DNA of 64,000 nt from Fibrobacteria bacterium (GCA_025360005.1 JANYDA010000001.1:87144-151143); one strand, 5' to 3'. Shown: positions 6,322-32,749, counted from the stretch's first letter. Translations and numbers: made by a program. The notes: generated by a model from the letters alone, not told the origin.

Positions 6322-8922
6322 CTACGCCTTCGCTTTTGCCGCCGCTGCCGCCGCCGCCAGCTTCGGCTCCGGAAGCAGTTTCAATGCCAGCCAGGGCGTA
6401 AGACACATCGACGTCCCCAGCAAGGCCAGCAGGCCCAACACCGCGAACTTACCGATGCTGGCTATTCCCATGTGGGTGGTGAATAGCATCCCCGCATATC
6501 CGGCCGTGGTGGTCAAGGTGGAGACGGCCACCAGCACGCCGATGCCCCCATACAATTCCCCGATGCGATGGCGTCCCAGGCGCAAGTATCCCAGCAGCAT
6601 ATAGCTCCCCACGTCCACGGCATACCCTTGCAGGGTTGTGATGACGATCAGATTGAAAGGCCCGATTTTCAATCCCGACAAACCCATCAATCCCAGTATC
6701 CAAACCAGACCCACCGCCATCTGGATCAAGCAGGCGATCAGCAGGCGCCAATCCCGGAAGATCAGCGCCAGCAACAGGATCAACACCCCGACCATCCAGA
6801 TGGAAACGCGCAAGCTGTCCGATTTCACGATGTGGATGATGTCGCTGAAGACGAAGCTGGTGCTGAAGCTCGCCAACCTTTCGCCGCCGGCGGAGAGATG
6901 GCCGTAATGTTCCTGGAAAACCGAAGCATCCAGGGCGTTGGAGGAATTGTACCGTCCGTAGATGAAACCCAGGCGGCCGTAGCTGCCATCGCGCTCCCGG
7001 AGCAGGTTGAGGGCCCACGGCGGGATATCGGCGGGATGGAAGGGCGACGTCATGGCCAAGTCGCGCAAGTTGGCGATCATGGCGGAATCGTCCCCTTTGG
7101 CCCTATCGAACACGCGTGCGGAGATCAATTCCCCGATGTGGTTTATCTCCAGCATCCGTTCCTGTTGCGCCTGCACGGGCGGTACGAAAGTGGCCAAGGT
7201 AAGGAAGCTGCGCAAATACGGATCGCGGTTCACGGTGAGACGCCGGAGCAAGGTATCCTGGAGCGCGGCCATGGAAGCGGAATCCCTGGCCATGACCACT
7301 ACCGGCTGGCTGCTGGTGCGATTGCTGCCCAACGCCACGCTCACGGGCAGCCCGCCATCCTTCTCGCCGCGCGTGTCGCGCAATTTGGAGAAGTCGTATT
7401 CAAAAGCCAGGCGCGGTATGAAAAAGCCAAGCACCAGGGCACCCGCGCAAACGGTGAGGGCCGTTCCCTTTACCAGCTTGGGCCAATCCGGCCGCCATGA
7501 GAAGGGCCAACGGATCGGATCAGCCGCCCTGATGCGCAGCCATGCGAATCCCGGCACCGAGCCGAGGCTTTCCATAGCGAACAGGTATGCGGGCAAAAGC
7601 AGGTAGACGCCGGCTAGGCTCACCACTATACCTGCCGAGGCCTGGACGCCGAACTCATAGAAACCCACGAATTTGGAAGCCAGCAAGGTCAGCAAACCGG
7701 CCACGGTAGTGGATGCGCCCACCAGCAAGGAGAAGAAAAGCTCATCGAGTGTCCTGGCAAGCGCCGTCGCCCAATCCTCGCCCTCCCGGACCAGTCGCAG
7801 CGCGTACCCCAGCACGTAGATGGAAAAATCGATCCCCATGCCGAACAGGATGGAGACCACGAAAGCCGTATACAAATTCAAATGGCCATAGATACCCATG
7901 GTCAGGGCCAAAGTCACCAAGCAAGCGATGACCGCCTGCAAGAAAACCAGGAACACGGAACCGAAATTTCGGAAAAACGCCGCGATGATGAGGATGTTCA
8001 GTCCCACGGATATCAAGGTTGCCAATAAGCCGTTGCTCGCCAGCGAGTCCACCTCCGCCAATTCCTTGTAAGGGCCCTCCACGCCGATATTCAGCCGCGC
8101 GCCGTATTCGGAACGCAAGGGGCCCAGCAAGGCATGGCTGCGCGCCACTACCGTCTTCACGTAATCGAAATCGGAGCTGGGCTTGGACAGCGATGCCTGC
8201 ACCAATCCCACCAACTTGCCCTCGCGGGTCCTTCCCATCAGGCGGGAACGGAGCGAATCGGGGATGCCGCTCTTGGAGTCGTATTGATCCGCGCCGGTCT
8301 TTCCCTTTTTCAAAAACCGGGTGAAGGACTCGGCGGCCTCGTCCGGAAGTCCCAACTGCTGGGGCAAGTCCGCGTCGAACCACTCCCGCTTGGGTTTGGC
8401 GGCCGCCGAATCCTCGTCCAGAAGATCGACGGTCAATGGCCCTTGCTTGCCCAGGTCCAGCCTCAAGTCCTGGATCTCCCGCGAGATTTTCCGCAACTGA
8501 TCCTGGGGCAGGTAAAGCAATGCGTGTTTGCGGAAAAAGGAATTGTCGCGCTGCGATTGGGCATAGACTACGTCCGGCCACTTCCGCAGCGAATCCGCAA
8601 GCCTATCCTGGATGCGGGCCAGTTCCGCGGGATCCTGGATTGAGATGGCGATGGTATAGAGGTCGGAACTGCCCAAGCGGGTCTTGGCCTCGCGCATGGC
8701 GCGGATGGTTTCCGTGTTCCGCGGCAGCAGGGCGTCGAGATTGGCGTCTATGCGCAGATGGGTGGCATAGAATCCGCAGAGCGCGGAGGCGCCGAGACTG
8801 ATTGCCACGATGAGGAAACGATGGCGTTGGGAACGGCGGATATGCGACAGCAGCAACCGTTTCCAAAACCCGGCTTGGCGGGAGGATGTACCGACAAGGT
8901 TATTTTTCTTCGTTGATGTCAC
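6322..8922 (-). CDS. MMPL / RND-superfamily exporter (two 6-TM bundles with large periplasmic loops)
   Basis: 866 aa; duplicated MMPL-type transmembrane architecture (…GIDFSIYVLGY… and …GYAVDVGSYML…); C-terminal Ala/Lys tail. Its start overlaps the upstream lipoprotein gene by 23 nt. Confidence 0.8.
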   Translation of the reverse strand: MTSTKKNNLVGTSSRQAGFWKRLLLSHIRRSQRHRFLIVAISLGASALCGFYATHLRIDANLDALLPRNTETIRAMREAKTRLGSSDLYTIAISIQDPAELARIQDRLADSLRKWPDVVYAQSQRDNSFFRKHALLYLPQDQLRKISREIQDLRLDLGKQGPLTVDLLDEDSAAAKPKREWFDADLPQQLGLPDEAAESFTRFLKKGKTGADQYDSKSGIPDSLRSRLMGRTREGKLVGLVQASLSKPSSDFDYVKTVVARSHALLGPLRSEYGARLNIGVEGPYKELAEVDSLASNGLLATLISVGLNILIIAAFFRNFGSVFLVFLQAVIACLVTLALTMGIYGHLNLYTAFVVSILFGMGIDFSIYVLGYALRLVREGEDWATALARTLDELFFSLLVGASTTVAGLLTLLASKFVGFYEFGVQASAGIVVSLAGVYLLLPAYLFAMESLGSVPGFAWLRIRAADPIRWPFSWRPDWPKLVKGTALTVCAGALVLGFFIPRLAFEYDFSKLRDTRGEKDGGLPVSVALGSNRTSSQPVVVMARDSASMAALQDTLLRRLTVNRDPYLRSFLTLATFVPPVQAQQERMLEINHIGELISARVFDRAKGDDSAMIANLRDLAMTSPFHPADIPPWALNLLRERDGSYGRLGFIYGRYNSSNALDASVFQEHYGHLSAGGERLASFSTSFVFSDIIHIVKSDSLRVSIWMVGVLILLLALIFRDWRLLIACLIQMAVGLVWILGLMGLSGLKIGPFNLIVITTLQGYAVDVGSYMLLGYLRLGRHRIGELYGGIGVLVAVSTLTTTAGYAGMLFTTHMGIASIGKFAVLGLLALLGTSMCLTPWLALKLLPEPKLAAAAAAAKAKA

Positions 8923-9709
8923 CGGAAGCCTCTATCTTTTGACGGATCCGCAATCCCGCGCCTTGGCAAAACCCGTCGCCCGCGAGCAAAGTAACCCCGG
9001 AATCGCCGGCGGTCGAACCGCTGGCCTCCAGGCAATTTTTCAAATCGACGGTTTTGAACCAATCGTCGACGGTCAATTGCAACAGCAGCTTATTCAGGGC
9101 CGCCGCGGTGATCCTGATCCCGGTGGGACCGTCGAAATCCAATCCGTCCCGCAGATTGAGGCGGACGGAAAACGGCCTTGCCCGGCCGTCCGCGCTATCC
9201 GTCCCCCCCCTGATTTCCATGTTCGGGGTGTTGGTATCCACGGCGGGCGCGGACTCGTTATCGGAAAGCTCCAGGCCGACCCGGGTATAAACGCCTTCCG
9301 GCAAGCGCAGATGTTCCAAAGGCGGATTGGACGCGCCGGTCATCAGATCGACGACGAAAGGCCCCGGAAGCGAAATCCCATCGCTGTCGCACGTGTATCC
9401 GGGAGCCGATTCGCAAGTCAATCCCACCGGAAGACTGAGATCGATTTTGCGCACCGCAATGGTGAGGGAAGAGATCTTGATGGCGGAACCCGCGGAGTCG
9501 AACACCTCGAACGTACCATCCGGGTTACGTATGACCGCGGCGGCGCTTTTCCGCAGCACCGAATCGGTAAGCGAATTGGCCCTGAACACCAACGCGACTT
9601 CGGCCAGGGGCGGGTTGCCGGCGCCCGTTCCGCCGGACACTTTTTCCGGCTGGCAGCGCAGGAGCACCAACCCCAGCGCCAGAACCGCCGCCCTCATTCC
9701 CGGGCTCAT
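8900..9709 (-). CDS. Lipoprotein paralogue 1 (GGTGAGNPPL family; Fibrobacter-type partner of TIGR02147)
   Basis: Likely start MSPGMRAAVLALGLVLLRC with a GAAGGA RBS. Mature N-terminus CQPEKVSGGTGAGNPPL. Shares VDDWF and LAGDGFC blocks with the 10623-11453 paralogue. Confidence 0.6.
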   Translation of the reverse strand: MSPGMRAAVLALGLVLLRCQPEKVSGGTGAGNPPLAEVALVFRANSLTDSVLRKSAAAVIRNPDGTFEVFDSAGSAIKISSLTIAVRKIDLSLPVGLTCESAPGYTCDSDGISLPGPFVVDLMTGASNPPLEHLRLPEGVYTRVGLELSDNESAPAVDTNTPNMEIRGGTDSADGRARPFSVRLNLRDGLDFDGPTGIRITAAALNKLLLQLTVDDWFKTVDLKNCLEASGSTAGDSGVTLLAGDGFCQGAGLRIRQKIEASGDINEEK

Positions 9710-10545
9710 TGCGGATCCTTCTTTACCCGGGTCAAAGGGAACAATTGGAGATTGACTTGGTAGACTGCTTCGGCGTGCTGCTGGGTGCCGGCAAAATCGA
9801 GGATGTCCCTCCAAATCACCTCCATGCGCGACTTCAATTCCAGGAATGCGCTTTGGGTGAGGCCGATGGTCACCGAACGCACATCGCGTTCGCCAGGACC
9901 GAAATGCTTAAGCGCATCCTGCCCCAACTGCATGGCCGCCAGGTGGTAATTCCGGAGCGCGAGTTGGCTGGCCTCCGACTCCGTGGCTATGACGGGGTCC
10001 GCAAGACGCCAAGCCATGGTTTCCGGATCCAACCGGACGAGCCCCAGCTTTTGCAGCACATCCCTCGCGCCGTCGACTTGGGCGGCGGTCAGGCGGGGGA
10101 AGATGCGCTCCGCAATCCATCCGCTGGTTCCGTCGAAGCCAGGGTGAGTCATCAATTCCCGGACCACGGGATTGTACCAATTGCTGAAGAACTCATATTG
10201 CGATTTGTCCAGGGTCTTTACCGCGGCATACCGTTTGTTCTTCAGGATGTTTTGGTAGAAAAGGTTTTTTTCATCCCAGCTCTTGGCTTGGCCGTAGCCA
10301 ACCAGGTTCTGCAGGAATTCCGTTTCCGTACGATTGAGTTTGAATGCCTTTGCCACGGCAACGGCATACTTGGAACTTAGGTTCCGCTTTCCCTGGATGA
10401 CCATTTGCAGGAAGTTGGGAGAGGAAAACCCGGAGCGTTTGGCGAAAGTCCGGAATGAAAGCTTTGGGGAATCGGCCTTCAAGGCCGCGAAAGCATCCCG
10501 AAGATAATCGCGGTATTCGAGATAGGTATGGATGTCCGGTTTCAT
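9706..10545 (-). CDS. TIGR02147-family protein (Fibrobacter succinogenes paralogous family), copy 1; N-terminal HTH-like
   Basis: MKPDIHTYLEYRDYLRDAF…SFRTFAKRSGFSSPNFLQMVIQGKRNLS…QYEFFSNWY. The track ORF begins at 10587; the start was chosen by alignment to the other two copies. Confidence 0.75.
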   Translation of the reverse strand: MKPDIHTYLEYRDYLRDAFAALKADSPKLSFRTFAKRSGFSSPNFLQMVIQGKRNLSSKYAVAVAKAFKLNRTETEFLQNLVGYGQAKSWDEKNLFYQNILKNKRYAAVKTLDKSQYEFFSNWYNPVVRELMTHPGFDGTSGWIAERIFPRLTAAQVDGARDVLQKLGLVRLDPETMAWRLADPVIATESEASQLALRNYHLAAMQLGQDALKHFGPGERDVRSVTIGLTQSAFLELKSRMEVIWRDILDFAGTQQHAEAVYQVNLQLFPLTRVKKDPQ

Positions 10546-10622
10546 GGATGGGAAGCGTTCCCAACCAAGCGGGCCGGGGAATCCCAATTATACAAAATCG
10601 CCGACGGTAAAAACGTCCGGAT

Positions 10623-11453
10623 TCAGGGTTGTTCCACCTGATCCTCATAGTTGATTCCGCCGGATGCCTCGATGTTCCGCCTCACCCTTATGCCGGTCCC
10701 GGAACAGAAACCGTCCCCTTGCAATCGGACAATGCCGGCGCTATCGGAACCGGCCGGGGAGGCGGCCATGCAAGCCTGCATATCCGTCCCCTGGAACCAG
10801 TCGTCCACGTTCAAACCCAAAAGGATGTTGTTCAGAGTATCCGATTTGATCCTTACTCCCACGGGATCTCCGAAATCCAAGCCCTCGGTAAGGTTAATCC
10901 GGATCACGAATCGTTGGCCTGCGGACCCCAGCGCGCCCATCCTTCCCCACAGGACGATATTCTGGCTCGTCGAATCCCAATCGGTCAAGGAGTCCTGTTT
11001 GTTCGCAATCAGTTTAAACCCGATCTTCCGGTAGAGTCCCGCCGGGATCTTGAAAACATTCAAAGCCGGATGGGATATCCCACGCAGCAAATCCAGGTCG
11101 AACGGACCTTCCAGGGTGGTTTCACCGTCCTTGCAGGGAAGCCCGGAAAAGATGGGGCAATCGAGACTGTCCGGCAATGCGAAATCGATGCCCTCCACGC
11201 GCGACACGATGGAATCAAGCGATAACACGGCTCCGGCGGAATCCCGTATCACGAATCCGCTGTCCAAGGCGATGAGGCCGGAGGCGGTGGATTTGGGCAG
11301 AATCCTGGGGCCTGAGGATTTCGCCTTGAGAGCCAAGGTCACCTCGCCGAGCGGCGGGTTCCCTGCGCCCGCGCCTCCGGCTACGCGTTCAGGAATGCAT
11401 TGGAAAAAGGAGATGCAGGTAAGCATGAGGCAAAGACGGAGTACCGGAATCAT
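10623..11453 (-). CDS. Lipoprotein paralogue 2 (GGAGAGNPPL family)
   Basis: Signal peptide MIPVLRLCLMLTCISFFQC. Mature N-terminus CIPERVAGGAGAGNPPL. Paralogous to 8900-9709. Starts 1 nt after the stop of TIGR02147 copy 2. Confidence 0.6.
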   Translation of the reverse strand: MIPVLRLCLMLTCISFFQCIPERVAGGAGAGNPPLGEVTLALKAKSSGPRILPKSTASGLIALDSGFVIRDSAGAVLSLDSIVSRVEGIDFALPDSLDCPIFSGLPCKDGETTLEGPFDLDLLRGISHPALNVFKIPAGLYRKIGFKLIANKQDSLTDWDSTSQNIVLWGRMGALGSAGQRFVIRINLTEGLDFGDPVGVRIKSDTLNNILLGLNVDDWFQGTDMQACMAASPAGSDSAGIVRLQGDGFCSGTGIRVRRNIEASGGINYEDQVEQP

Positions 11454-11454
11454 A

Positions 11455-12306
11455 TCAAACCTTTCCCTCGCGGGAGGAAGGGCCCCGGGTCAGCGGAAAC
11501 AATTGCAGATTCACCTGGTATACCGCATCGGTCTCGCGCTGGGTTCCCGCGATTTCCAAAACTTCTTTCCACACGTTTTCGATTCTGGATTTCAATTCTC
11601 CATAGGCTTCATGGGATAGGCCGATGGTTACCGAGCGGACATCCCTTTCCGCGGGCCCGAATACTTTCAGGCTATCATGCGCCAACTGGATCGCGGCCAT
11701 ATGGTAGTTGCGAATCCCCAGGTGGGTGGTCTCCGAATCCGTGCTTACCACCGTGTCCACCAAGCGCCAGCGACCGGAATCCGGGTCCAAACGGACCAAG
11801 TCCAGGTTCGTCAGCAGGGTTTTGGCGGAGTCCACCTGGGCGATGGTGATGCGCGGGAAAATACGCTCCGCGATCCATCCGCTGCTCCCGTCGAACTCCT
11901 TGTGCACCAGCAGCTCGCGGACGACGGGGATGTACCAATGGGTGAAAAATTCATACTGGGATTTGTCGAGGTATTTCGCCGAGGCATAGCGCGCGTTGCG
12001 CAATATCTTCTGGTAGTAAAGATTTTTTTCGTCGAGACTCTTGGCTTGGTCGTAGCCCACCAGGTACTGGAAGAAATCCGTCTCCTGTTTGTTCAGCTTG
12101 AAGGCCTTGGCAGCGACCACGGCATTCGTGGAACTCAAATTGCGCTTTCCCAAGATGACCATTTGCAGGAAGTTCGGAGACGTGAATCCCGCTTTTTTTG
12201 CGAAGGTCCGGTAAGACATGCGGGGTGAGGCCTTTTGGATAGCCGTGAAGGCGTCCTTAAGGTAGGCCCGATACTGGATGTATTTGAAGATATCCGGTTT
12301 GTTCAT
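11455..12306 (-). CDS. TIGR02147-family protein, copy 2
   Basis: MNKPDIFKYIQYRAYLKDAF…SYRTFAKKAGFTSPNFLQMVILGKRNLS…QYEFFTHWY. The track ORF extends to 12381; the internal Met was chosen by alignment. Confidence 0.75.
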   Translation of the reverse strand: MNKPDIFKYIQYRAYLKDAFTAIQKASPRMSYRTFAKKAGFTSPNFLQMVILGKRNLSSTNAVVAAKAFKLNKQETDFFQYLVGYDQAKSLDEKNLYYQKILRNARYASAKYLDKSQYEFFTHWYIPVVRELLVHKEFDGSSGWIAERIFPRITIAQVDSAKTLLTNLDLVRLDPDSGRWRLVDTVVSTDSETTHLGIRNYHMAAIQLAHDSLKVFGPAERDVRSVTIGLSHEAYGELKSRIENVWKEVLEIAGTQRETDAVYQVNLQLFPLTRGPSSREGKV

Positions 12307-12388: not shown

Positions 12389-12862
12389 TTATTTCACCTC
12401 CGTGGTGTCGCCACCGGCATGGCCGGACGCTTCCTGTCCTTCGACAGCGTCCTTAACGCCGCCGACCTCTCCATCCTTCTTATCCTCGGTTTTGGTCGAA
12501 TCCGATTTTTCTTCGTCGCCGCCTTTCCCGGCTTCGGTGCCTTCCGCACCTGAATGGTGATCCTTTTCATCGCAACCCGCGACTTCGGCGGAATCCTTTA
12601 CTTCAGTAGAATCCTTTACTTCAGTAGAATCCTTTTCATCGGCCACTTTGGCGCTATCGCCGTCCTCGTGACCTTTCCCCATGGCTTTTTCATGGCTGCA
12701 GCCGGTGCTACCGGTATCGACCACGCCGCCCTTGGTCTGGGTGGACAGGGCTCCGTTGGAATTGCTTGCAGGGTCGGAAATGCCCAGACATCCGGCCATA
12801 AAAGCCAGCGACAGGCATCCTGCCCCCAAGGTGAGAGTATTCCGCATAATGACTCGATTCAT
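12389..12862 (-). CDS. Small acidic secreted lipoprotein with KDSTEV tandem repeats
   Basis: Signal peptide plus lipobox-like LAFMAGC. Low-complexity Asp/Glu/Lys/Gly-rich body with His and Cys. An 18-bp tandem DNA repeat at 12591-12644 encodes KDSTEV KDSTEV KDSAEV. Confidence 0.5.
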   Translation of the reverse strand: MNRVIMRNTLTLGAGCLSLAFMAGCLGISDPASNSNGALSTQTKGGVVDTGSTGCSHEKAMGKGHEDGDSAKVADEKDSTEVKDSTEVKDSAEVAGCDEKDHHSGAEGTEAGKGGDEEKSDSTKTEDKKDGEVGGVKDAVEGQEASGHAGGDTTEVK

Positions 12863-30400: not shown

Positions 30401-30530
30401 GGATGCGCCATCATTGGTAGGTTTTTTGAATCCTCAGGCAAGCCTTGCGCCCTCCGTGGCAACATGTCCTCCCGGGGCCGAAACCATTCTCGTCGGTTTT
30501 GAGGTATAATGCATAGGATCGAAGAACGCT

Positions 30531-31388
30531 ATGAAAGCATCCAAGCAAGAACCAAACGCCAGGCCCGATATTTTCCGTTATGCGGACTATCGCGCCTTCC
30601 TCAAGGACAGCTATGAATCGCGTAAGGCCGCCAACCCGGCGTTCTCGCACCGTTACCTGGCCGCCAAGATAGGTTTCGATGCCGGGCAGTTCTCCAAGAT
30701 CCTGAGCGGAAAGCGCAACCTGACGCATGCCATGATCCTGAAGTTCTCGGATCTGTTCAAGCTGGGAAAGAAGGAAAAGGAATACTTCGAGCTTCTGGTG
30801 CTGGCCAATCACGCGAAAACACCCACCGACCGCGCGGAACTGCTCGCGAAGCTTCCGCCGTTGCGCCCCAAGGCCGCCAAAGCCGTGGCCTCCGGCCTGG
30901 ATGAATATTACCGGCATTGGTACCATAGCGCTTTGCGGGAGCTGCTTGGCTTCTATCCTTTCCGCGGCGACTGGAACGCCTTGGGGCGGATGCTCGTCCC
31001 TGCCCTTTCGGCCGAGCAAGCGGAAAAAGGCGTGATGCTATTGGTAGAGTTGGGATTCCTGCAGAAGGATGCGCAAGGCGGATTCCGCATTTCCGATCCG
31101 CATATCACCACCGGGTACAAAAGCCCTTCCGCGGCCGTGCACCATTTCATCCGGACCACGCTGGACCTGGCAAAAGGCTCCTTGGACGGCTTTCCCAAGG
31201 ATATCCGCAATCTGTCCACCCTGACCTTCAGCACCTCGGAGAACCACTTCCTGCAGATCCAGGAAAAGATCCGGCTGTTCCGCAAAGAGCTGGCGGATGA
31301 AGTGGACAAGGTGGAAAAGCCCGAACGCGTCTACCAACTCAATATGCAAATCTTCCCGCTATCGGAAACCTGGGGATCCGGCAAATGA
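30531..31388 (+). CDS. TIGR02147-family protein, copy 3
   Basis: …RPDIFRYADYRAFLKDSY…SHRYLAAKIGFDAGQFSKILSGKRNLT…YYRHWYH… aligns with copies 1 and 2. A TATAAT element lies 21 bp upstream. Overlaps the downstream lipoprotein gene by 4 nt. Confidence 0.75.
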   Translation: MKASKQEPNARPDIFRYADYRAFLKDSYESRKAANPAFSHRYLAAKIGFDAGQFSKILSGKRNLTHAMILKFSDLFKLGKKEKEYFELLVLANHAKTPTDRAELLAKLPPLRPKAAKAVASGLDEYYRHWYHSALRELLGFYPFRGDWNALGRMLVPALSAEQAEKGVMLLVELGFLQKDAQGGFRISDPHITTGYKSPSAAVHHFIRTTLDLAKGSLDGFPKDIRNLSTLTFSTSENHFLQIQEKIRLFRKELADEVDKVEKPERVYQLNMQIFPLSETWGSGK

Positions 31389-32749
31389 AAATCCCGTCGA
31401 CGCTATCCGTGCTGGCGGCCAGCTGCGGCGTGATGGCGGGGCTTTGCCTCACCGCATGCGGACCCAACCGCGTCGCCGGAGGCACCAGTTCGGAGGCGGA
31501 GGCGCTTCTGCAAGGAACGGTGACCAAGCCGGACGGTTCGGCCGCGGCGGGAGCCCGCGTGCGCATCCGCCCCATCGGCTACCTCTCCCGCTCCGGAACG
31601 GATACCTCCGCGCTCGCCGATTTGGTCGCCGATTCCCTGGGCAAGGTGAAATGGACCACCCGCGATACGGGACTCTTCAACCTGGAAGCGGAACTGGGGG
31701 ATACCTTGGGAACGCTGATAAGGGACATTTCCCCCGGCCGCGAATCCGGGCATCTCACCGCATCCCTGGACACCAACGGATCCATCCGCGTCAACCTGGC
31801 CACGCCTCAAGCCGGCTCCGGCTATTCCCTGCGCGTCTACGGAATGGAACGGTTCCAGGCAGCCGATGCCCAGGGTATCTTCCATGTTACCCTACCCGCC
31901 GGCGGCTACTCCCTCCTCATAGAGCATTCTCCGCCCTCCGGATCCCCGCTCTTGGTCCGGGACGTGCAGGTGGCCAGTGGAAAAACCACCCTGCTGGATT
32001 CGCTGCGCTTCCCGGCTTTGGATTCGGTCCTGCTGGGATACTGGGCCTTCGAGGAAGGCGGCGGCGATTCCGCCCGGGACGGCTCCGGGAACGGGCACGC
32101 GGGAATGGTGCGCGGCGCCCAATGGGTCGCGGGCAGGAAGGGCCTGGGACTCCGCTTTACGCAGGGACAGGGATACGTGGACATGGGAATTCCCCAACCG
32201 GACACTTTCGCCTTCGGCGCGGCCAGGGACTATTCCTTTTCGGTATGGGCCAAGACCGACAACCCCGTGCCCAACCGGGGGCTGGGGCGACGCATCATTT
32301 CCAAGCAAGGGGGCGCCAACGGATTCTCGTATTTCCTGCGCATCTTCCCGGATGGACGGCCCGGCTTCGCTTCCAACACGCGCAAGGACACGGTAAAAGC
32401 TCCCGCCGGATCCGTTACGGCCGCGCGGGATTTGATCGCGCCCGTGAACGTGGGCGACGGCGCCTGGCACCATTGGGCCGGGGTCCGCAAGCGGAACCGC
32501 CTGACCTTGTATATAGACGGCCAGGCTGTCGCCTCCGCCAGCGACGACAGCCTGAGATCGGATTATAGTTTTATCGATTACAATGATCACAGTGCCCTGC
32601 TATACCCGGATCCCGGGCAGGACAATCACCTTTTGATCGGCTGCGCCAAAACCGGCGTGGACGGTTTCGACGGCGTGATCGATGAAGCCCGCGTATACGG
32701 CCGCGCGCTCACGCCCCAGGAAATCCTGCTGCTCGCCGATCCTTTCTAA
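31385..32749 (+). CDS. Lipoprotein with C-terminal LamG/concanavalin-A-like lectin domain
   Basis: Lipobox LTAC. Mature N-terminus CGPNRVAGGTSSEAEAL. C-terminal LamG-type blocks (DGAWHHWAGVRKRNRLTLYIDGQAV…DGVIDEARVYGRALTPQEI). Confidence 0.75.
   Translation: MKIPSTLSVLAASCGVMAGLCLTACGPNRVAGGTSSEAEALLQGTVTKPDGSAAAGARVRIRPIGYLSRSGTDTSALADLVADSLGKVKWTTRDTGLFNLEAELGDTLGTLIRDISPGRESGHLTASLDTNGSIRVNLATPQAGSGYSLRVYGMERFQAADAQGIFHVTLPAGGYSLLIEHSPPSGSPLLVRDVQVASGKTTLLDSLRFPALDSVLLGYWAFEEGGGDSARDGSGNGHAGMVRGAQWVAGRKGLGLRFTQGQGYVDMGIPQPDTFAFGAARDYSFSVWAKTDNPVPNRGLGRRIISKQGGANGFSYFLRIFPDGRPGFASNTRKDTVKAPAGSVTAARDLIAPVNVGDGAWHHWAGVRKRNRLTLYIDGQAVASASDDSLRSDYSFIDYNDHSALLYPDPGQDNHLLIGCAKTGVDGFDGVIDEARVYGRALTPQEILLLADPF

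Follow-up and report, generated by a model that had tools for sequence, protein, structure and literature searches.

A widespread, apparently undescribed N-terminal tag on the exported partner proteins of TIGR02147 regulators

In a 64,000-nucleotide stretch of DNA from a Fibrobacteria bacterium (GCA_025360005.1 JANYDA010000001.1:87144-151143; hereafter the window), three genes for putative regulators of the TIGR02147/DUF4423 family are each directly followed by a gene for a lipoprotein-like protein. The three proteins (Lipo1, Lipo2 and Lipo3) share a short sequence, here called the tag, behind the cysteine that ends the signal peptide. The gene pairs and the tags are as follows.

9706-10545, (-) strand: regulator gene a, TIGR02147/DUF4423 (XRE helix-turn-helix [HTH] plus winged helix; TIGR02147 E 6.6e-71, DUF4423 E 4e-28)
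8900-9709, (-) strand: Lipo1, family A partner protein; its start codon and the stop codon of regulator a share an ATGA (gap of -4)
9655-9605, (-) strand: Lipo1 tag, CQPEKVSGGTGAGNPPL; strict pattern match, preceded by LLR, a non-canonical lipobox
11455-12306, (-) strand: regulator gene b, TIGR02147/DUF4423
10623-11453, (-) strand: Lipo2, family A partner protein; starts 1 nt past the stop codon of regulator b
11399-11349, (-) strand: Lipo2 tag, CIPERVAGGAGAGNPPL; strict pattern match, preceded by FFQ, a non-canonical lipobox
30531-31388, (+) strand: regulator gene c, TIGR02147/DUF4423 (TIGR02147 E 9.2e-82)
31385-32749, (+) strand: Lipo3, family B partner protein (CarboxypepD_reg-like region plus Laminin_G_3); its ATG overlaps the stop codon of regulator c
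31457-31507, (+) strand: Lipo3 tag, CGPNRVAGGTSSEAEAL; strict pattern match but a degenerate variant, preceded by LTA, a canonical lipobox

The three regulators are clear members of TIGR02147 (Fsuc_second)/Pfam DUF4423, a family that is listed as being of unknown function. They matched NCBIfam TIGR02147 with E values of 7e-71 to 9e-82 (239-275 bits, cut-off 50) over profile positions 2-271 of 272, and Pfam DUF4423 with 99-103 bits (cut-off 30). Regulators a and b are 65% identical, and regulator c is ~28% identical to both. The AlphaFold2 model of the regulator (predicted local distance difference test score [pLDDT], 88) contains, in order, an XRE-type HTH, helices and a winged helix, with no tetratricopeptide repeat (TPR) or other recognisable peptide-binding domain, and sequence comparison found no relative of solved structure. 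The family has ~14,600 representatives at 50% identity (E <=1e-10), and its cultivable hosts include Fibrobacter succinogenes and Bdellovibrio bacteriovorus. In the literature on TIGR02147/DUF4423 we found one incidental mention, the listing of the DUF4423 protein Bd3700 of Bdellovibrio bacteriovorus in a proteome table (PMC12546842), and no description of an obligate tagged partner or of the HTH plus winged-helix architecture.

The sequence-only reading had reported the pattern C-x-P-[EN]-[KR]-V-[SA]-G-G in three otherwise divergent lipoproteins, each next to a TIGR02147 gene. Six-frame translation of the window gave exactly three matches to this pattern, all of them starting at the signal-peptide Cys, and the adjacency was borne out in each case by an ATGA overlap (Lipo1 and Lipo3) or a 1-nt gap (Lipo2). 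The divergence was real for Lipo3, which resembles the other two at the N terminus only and carries a Pfam Laminin_G_3 domain (E 1.2e-21) and a weak CarboxypepD_reg match, but not for Lipo1 and Lipo2, which are full-length paralogues (39% identity, E 5e-69). Since these two are paralogous, the three copies in the window represent only two independent families. In addition, the strict pattern was defined post hoc from the three window sequences, so the case against chance has to rest on other genomes, independent loci and a shuffle control. None of the lipoprotein-like open reading frames (ORFs) of the window outside the TIGR02147 pairs carries the tag. Lipo1 corresponds to P0013 in the family A alignment. 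The public gene call for Lipo2 (P0001, 267 aa, 10623-11426(-)) takes an internal Met as its start (MLTCISFFQC). Translation from the longer form, MIPVLRLCLMLTCISFFQC (10623-11453(-)), begins right at the stop codon of regulator b and gives a more plausible signal peptide.

We then collected related loci, 96 from regulator scans of genome and metagenome collections (the metagenome scan used a six-sequence regulator alignment as query) and 7 more from exact-protein look-ups. The window and the 96 loci (97 sequences) contained 104 TIGR02147 ORF matches, and for nearly all of these ORFs that had room downstream, the next gene encoded a protein with a signal peptide and Cys. A hydrophobic stretch ending in Cys was found in all three window proteins and in 76 of the 80 unique downstream proteins. 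Among the 70 non-redundant cases, the regulator-partner junction was a 4-bp ATGA overlap in 38 (54%) and lay within -17 to +15 nt in ~63; we infer that the regulator and its tagged partner are co-transcribed. By record titles, the cassettes occur in Fibrobacterota (including Chitinispirillaceae), Ca. Raymondbacteria, Bradymonadaceae and other assemblies labelled "Deltaproteobacteria" and "Pseudomonadota." Two proteins, P0214 (596 aa) and P0262 (597 aa), have two TIGR02147 matches in one chain and may be tandem fusions or merged gene calls.

An unsupervised expectation-maximisation motif search, applied to the first 35 residues past the Cys, arrived at G-[TS]-[EG]-[TVA]-G-N-[PA], usually preceded by [LVI]-A-G, and yielded the position weight matrix used below. 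The extended consensus is [LV]-A-G-G-x-x-[TS]-[EG]-[TVA]-G-N-[PA], and a variant form, AGG-T-x-[ST]-E-[TA]-E-A, is the one carried by Lipo3. At a score of at least 10 bits, 57 of the 70 partners have the core form; the variant GG-x-[ST]-E-[TA]-x accounts for another 8, and the remaining 5 are near the threshold or are ORFs that are not truly adjacent. Thus the motif stands behind the signal-peptide Cys in 65 of 70 non-redundant TIGR02147 partners and is essentially absent from the other lipoprotein-like ORFs there, which upholds the earlier judgement that the similarity is not due to chance. In the motif-bearing partners the Asn is present in 57 of 57 and the Gly before it in 55 of 57; Thr or Ser occupies tag position 2 in 50 of 57, Thr is preferred at position 4, and about one-quarter have Ala, Val or Ser in place of the Pro, which the GG-x-S-E-T variant lacks. 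Within the window, the core matrix gave 17.4 bits for Lipo1 (GTGAGNPPL), 13.5 bits for Lipo2 and only 4.0 bits for Lipo3.

Comparison within the two window families showed which part of the reported pattern is general. The 22 proteins of family A, to which Lipo1 and Lipo2 belong, come without exception from Fibrobacteres-type assemblies. Conservation among them is highest in C-x-P-[DE]-[KR]-[LVM]-A-G-G-x-G-x-G-N-P-P-L, where the Cys and GG.G.GNPPL are invariant. Nine Lipo3 orthologues were found, and all eight of those in the comparison read [LV]-[AS]-G-G-T-[TS]-T-[ED]-T-E-A, a sequence of the GG-x-[ST]-E-T type that is also the variant of other lineages; they do not retain C-x-P-[EN]-[KR]-V. 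Accordingly, V-[SA]-G-G is the N-terminal half of the extended tag, while C-x-P-[EN]-[KR] is a lineage-specific spacer. The tag appears to be a widespread and undescribed N-terminal mark of exported TIGR02147 partners. Our literature searches found no description of the tag or of its pairing with the regulator, and searches with motif strings gave nothing relevant.

The specificity of the tag was examined at the same loci. The tag was present in 43 of 50 partners and in 1 of 47 other lipoprotein-like ORFs (Fisher p ~8e-19), a result that, together with its absence from the other lipoprotein-like ORFs of the window, rules out a general lipoprotein property of these organisms. Enrichment over background lipoproteins, which the sequence-only reading had proposed as the deciding comparison, thus came out in favour of a motif specific to TIGR02147 operons. 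The apparent non-partner carriers were two misassigned partners and two extra genes of the same TIGR02147 operons. The latter are a CxxCH cytochrome-like lipoprotein at L091 (3825-4568(+)), which reads ...LQGC-DALQPDKTALAGSGAGNA, and a partner paralogue at L084 (10790-12808(+)), which reads GGSTTTDNA; each is the second tagged lipoprotein of its TIGR02147 operon. Nor is the tag an intrinsic part of CarboxypepD_reg proteins: those encoded away from DUF4423 genes are untagged, and the tag also precedes unrelated folds.

Only 0.3% of composition-matched shuffles reached 10 bits. Among 730,000 six-frame residues there were 58 unique matches of at least 13 bits, and 52 of them lay just behind a signal peptide and Cys. 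At five loci outside the training of the matrix, a form of the tag followed the Cys in all five (GAGAGNPPF, GTETGTTD twice, GTETGNPDI and TTETEAL), although only two of the five pass 10 bits (10.3 and 19.1); the remaining three, at 1.7-3.4 bits, were assigned to GTETG- or TETE-type variants on visual inspection. The flanks of these five loci contained no further signal-proximal tag matches. The reverse test, starting from the tag and proceeding to regulator adjacency, covers the Lipo3 family: the one orthologue checked is immediately preceded by a DUF4423 gene that overlaps it by 4 bp, and CarboxypepD_reg proteins encoded at the same locus away from DUF4423 lack the tag and have ordinary signal peptides without the Cys.

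The nucleotide sequence under the tag was much less constrained than the peptide. The information content is 0.1-0.26 bits for third codon positions and 1-2 bits for the first two, and codon use differs among the three window copies, which vary at synonymous sites. Since third positions are free, selection acts on the peptide, and a DNA or RNA element under the coding sequence is ruled out. The synonymous differences likewise exclude recent gene conversion between the window copies, of which we saw no sign. It is hardly credible, then, that the tag reflects chance, composition or an underlying nucleic acid element. What could be said for chance was that the pattern had been drawn post hoc from three sequences, two of them paralogous, and this support did not survive the enrichment, the shuffle control, the independent loci and the codon evidence.

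Selection on the peptide would also be expected of a nascent-chain element, for example a translation pause ~30-45 codons into the gene that couples synthesis with targeting. The tag lies at a fairly constant 30-50 residues from the protein start, and Pro often follows the Gly-Asn. However, the tag has no similarity to known arrest peptides, and the Pro is absent from the substituted and GG-x-S-E-T forms described above. We consider such an element very improbable.

The proteins behind the tag are diverse. The partner bodies, from proteins of 150-830 aa, fell into 23 BLAST clusters, and their Pfam content includes CarboxypepD_reg (19 of 52), Laminin_G_3 (6) and DUF2341 (5), in addition to leucine-rich repeats (LRR), beta-propellers, BNR/Sortilin, NHL and DUF4382. 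In all, the tag stands ahead of at least 20 passenger families that are unrelated to one another. Some regulators with 45-65% mutual identity are paired with proteins whose bodies show no detectable similarity although the tag is shared. On the other hand, the nearest regulator relative was paired with the same partner family in 46 of 70 cases, as expected if cassettes evolve as units. This raises the possibility that the signal peptide and a Gly-rich linker are simply inherited as a conserved 5' module, with the tag a mere flexible spacer and the 3' passenger replaced; the tag region is indeed rich in Gly, Ser and Thr and is modelled at low confidence. A spacer, however, would not need an invariant Asn, a nearly invariant Gly or a preferred Pro or Ala, nor would its residues be kept across phylum-level distances while synonymous sites are randomised. 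Shuffled segments of the same composition almost never score, and the stretch from the Cys to the tag, which is the true spacer, is free to vary in both length (0-15 residues) and sequence. We therefore regard passive inheritance as quite unlikely.

The variable spacing also corrects the statement that conservation lies right at the acylated N terminus, which was imprecise. On the other side of the tag, a Gly and hydrophobic positions 4-6 residues past the tag Pro or Ala are more regular than the spacer. This combination of variable Cys spacing and a regular downstream side indicates that the tag is positioned relative to the first domain and not to the acylated end. In the AlphaFold2 model of Lipo2 and family A, the body is a beta-sandwich and the N-terminal 54 residues, including the tag, have pLDDT <50; by this model the tag region is probably exposed. 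Short linear motifs read by another protein typically show this combination of high sequence conservation, low model confidence and variable spacing.

An exposed segment just ahead of the first domain, as the model predicts, could also accommodate a modification site, for instance one at which Thr or Ser residues 2 and 4 of the tag are O-glycosylated or the chain is cut at the Asn. The frequent Thr or Ser at position 2, the preference for Thr at position 4 and the invariant Asn are consistent with this idea. Against it, the family A form G-A-G-A-G-N-P-P often has no Ser or Thr, the Pro after the Asn excludes the classical N-x-S/T sequon, and no glycosyltransferase or protease gene is conserved nearby. 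A modification sequon is thus a decidedly unlikely explanation of the tag.

The residue before the Cys is atypical in many tagged proteins. By the lipobox criterion [LVI][ASTVI][GAS]C, Lipo3 (LTAC) is canonical, while Lipo1 (LLRC) has Arg (9656-9658(-)) and Lipo2 (FFQC) has Gln (11400-11402(-)) before the Cys. When one permissive signal-plus-Cys search pattern was applied to tagged and other ORFs, a residue other than Gly, Ala or Ser preceded the Cys in 29 of 52 tagged proteins and in 7 of 45 other lipoprotein-like ORFs (p 5e-5); for Gln, His, Arg or Asn the counts were 20 of 52 and 1 of 45. The atypical residue occurs mostly in Fibrobacterota-type cassettes, and delta-type cassettes have canonical lipoboxes. 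The tagged class may therefore undergo relaxed or different signal-peptide processing. From the signal peptide and the Cys we infer acylation of the Cys. The genome of a relative encodes Lnt (LNT_N plus CN_hydrolase). The +2 residue is Gln, Ile or Gly in the window and mostly Gly, Ser, Ala or Leu in relatives.

The neighbourhood of the window cassettes contains several further features. The last 23 nt of Lipo1 are shared with a same-strand gene for an 866-aa MMPL/RND-type transporter (6322-8922(-)). In the relative L097, an MMPL gene is near the cassette but on the opposite strand, so the linkage of MMPL and cassette is not conserved. Directly upstream of regulator b and on the same strand is a gene for a small, very acidic lipoprotein (12389-12862(-)) with a canonical FMAG|C lipobox and KDSTEV-type repeats. 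In L001, L003 and L017, too, the orthologous regulator has a comparable acidic gene in front of it, and the operon of regulator b may therefore begin at this gene. A TATAAT hexamer is present ~40 nt upstream of regulator a (10585-10590(-)) and ~20 nt upstream of regulator c (30505-30510(+)). Regulator b has no such hexamer upstream and may be transcribed by read-through from upstream. Scans of promoter and terminator consensus sequences did not rise above shuffled expectation, and inspection by eye of the regions upstream of the closest regulators revealed no obvious conserved palindrome as a shared operator. The cassette gave no PADLOC match, and we rejected an anti-phage defence system.

Several known systems were compared with the tag. 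To our knowledge, few post-Cys signals that decide the destination of a lipoprotein have been described, namely Lol avoidance and the lipoprotein export signal (LES) of Bacteroidota. Lol avoidance leads to inner-membrane retention, for example through Asp at +2 in E. coli, and resembles the present case in that information resides in the first residues past the acylated Cys. We ruled it out on the basis of the +2 residues given above and because the position of the conserved part is not fixed relative to the Cys. Lol-avoidance and LES-type signals alike are read at a set distance from the Cys, and the variable spacing of the tag argues against both.

The LES, K-(D/E)2 or Q-A-(D/E)2, functions in a manner that depends on position and charge (Lauber et al. 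2016, PMC5080379). The tag has much in common with it: both are short post-Cys peptides, independent of the passenger, on binding proteins from regulator-containing loci. Fibrobacterota also belong to the same FCB (Fibrobacteres-Chlorobi-Bacteroidetes) superphylum as the Bacteroidota, the hosts of the LES, and most FCB phyla have the Bacteroidota-type subunits BamG and BamH of the beta-barrel assembly machinery (PMC12611786). In contrast to the LES, the tag (G-T-E-T-G-N-P) has no acidic run, and the post-Cys residues in the window are QPEKV, IPERV and GPNRV. Its position, 0-15 residues from the Cys, is not fixed, whereas the LES is position dependent. The tag is found in delta-type lineages outside the FCB group as well, and it is confined to TIGR02147 operons and not spread over general surface lipoproteins. 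Thus, the tag would work most like the LES of Bacteroidota but is not a member of the LES class.

Other candidates were rejected. Slam-dependent surface lipoproteins have an adjacent gene for the outer-membrane protein Slam (DUF560), and around the regulator only the partner is conserved. TIGR04134, the radical S-adenosylmethionine-associated lipoprotein family, gave at best 14-22 bits (cut-off 39.8), over the signal peptide and first domain. Matches to Leptospira LIC_11051 and LIC11996 and to Xop reflected generic LRR or propeller similarity far below cut-off. A double-glycine leader (C39/ATP-binding cassette [ABC] type) was discounted because the GG follows a Sec-type hydrophobic signal and Cys and no ABC or C39 gene is conserved nearby. 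MbnP, the four-Cys protein of the "metallo-mystery pair" (PDB 7l6g), is among the closest known systems.

A different comparison is offered by the RNPP family of Firmicutes (PlcR/PapR and PrgX), in which XRE-HTH regulators bind peptides derived from exported precursors encoded next to them; some enterococcal pheromones derive from lipoprotein signal peptides. In the cassette, as in these systems, the gene for an XRE-HTH regulator is directly followed by that of an exported partner, and conservation resides in the N-terminal region of the partner. By analogy, the TIGR02147 protein or its pathway could sense the tag of its partner, and thereby the export or turnover of the partner, with the un-exported cytoplasmic precursor or a released N-terminal (lipo)peptide as the candidate feedback signal. 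The near-exclusive genetic linkage, the ATGA junctions in 54% of cases, which suggest 1:1 production, and the retention of the tag as the only partner part kept while bodies diverge all favour feedback. On the other hand, the model of the regulator has an HTH and a winged helix without a TPR or recognisable peptide-binding domain, whereas RNPP regulators have a TPR fused to the XRE HTH and a small pro-peptide as partner; on these grounds membership in the RNPP regulators was rejected. The TIGR02147 partners are large and multidomain, not pro-peptides, and their hosts are diderm. Moreover, the tag is common to all paralogues of one genome and would give no specificity between cassettes, and it lies beyond the signal peptide and would be extracytoplasmic once the partner is exported. 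We consider feedback rather unlikely.

Taken together, a sorting, tethering or processing signal, as first suggested from the sequence, is the leading hypothesis. The TIGR02147 regulator and its exported, probably lipid-anchored, tagged partner form a two-gene cassette, usually translationally coupled, which has multiplied within genomes and spread over Fibrobacterota, Ca. Raymondbacteria, Bradymonadales and other delta-type lineages. The tag, located past the signal-peptide Cys and ahead of the first folded domain, is kept while the passenger changes (CarboxypepD_reg, LamG, LRR, beta-propellers or an MbnP-like sandwich). We propose that, after Sec export and lipid modification of the Cys, a single envelope factor common to the whole class may recognise the tag as a site for docking or processing and position these binding proteins at the cell surface, retain them there or release them, and that the TIGR02147 regulator may control the expression of its own partner or operon. 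A surface location of the partners is suggested by their adhesin- and lectin-like passenger domains only. We give this explanation, in which an envelope factor reads the tag for docking or processing and the regulator controls the partner, something approaching an even chance of being correct.

Several observations weigh against this proposal. All the loci were centred on TIGR02147 genes, which makes the sample a biased one in which tagged lipoproteins elsewhere in the genomes are uncounted. In this sample, none of the 45 lipoprotein-like ORFs outside TIGR02147 operons carries the tag; a general surface-sorting signal would occur outside these operons, and the near-exclusive link to the regulator, the chief weak point of the proposal, is thus left unexplained by pure sorting. 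Around the regulator-partner pair we found no third conserved gene (sorting enzyme, transporter, glycosyltransferase or protease) and no tag-recognising factor. The unusual residue before the Cys calls into question normal processing by LspA and possibly lipidation itself. Finally, low pLDDT is weak evidence for disorder, and the family A alignment comprises 22 sequences only.

A further reading is that of a previously unrecognised two-component envelope module, made up of the regulator and its tagged partner, in which the tag and the Gln, His or Arg before the Cys would direct a dedicated maturation or release apart from the Lgt-LspA-Lol route and the state of the partner would be reported to the regulator. 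We hold such a module to be unlikely but plausible.

The significance of the tag lies in the combination of properties described here: it is sharply defined, with an invariant Gly-Asn, is present in several phylum-level lineages, is independent of the passenger and is tied to a single uncharacterised regulator family. TIGR02147/DUF4423, a family without a function, gains an obligate partner and a testable handle, and the tag could become an annotation rule for many probable surface binding proteins of cellulolytic and predatory bacteria.

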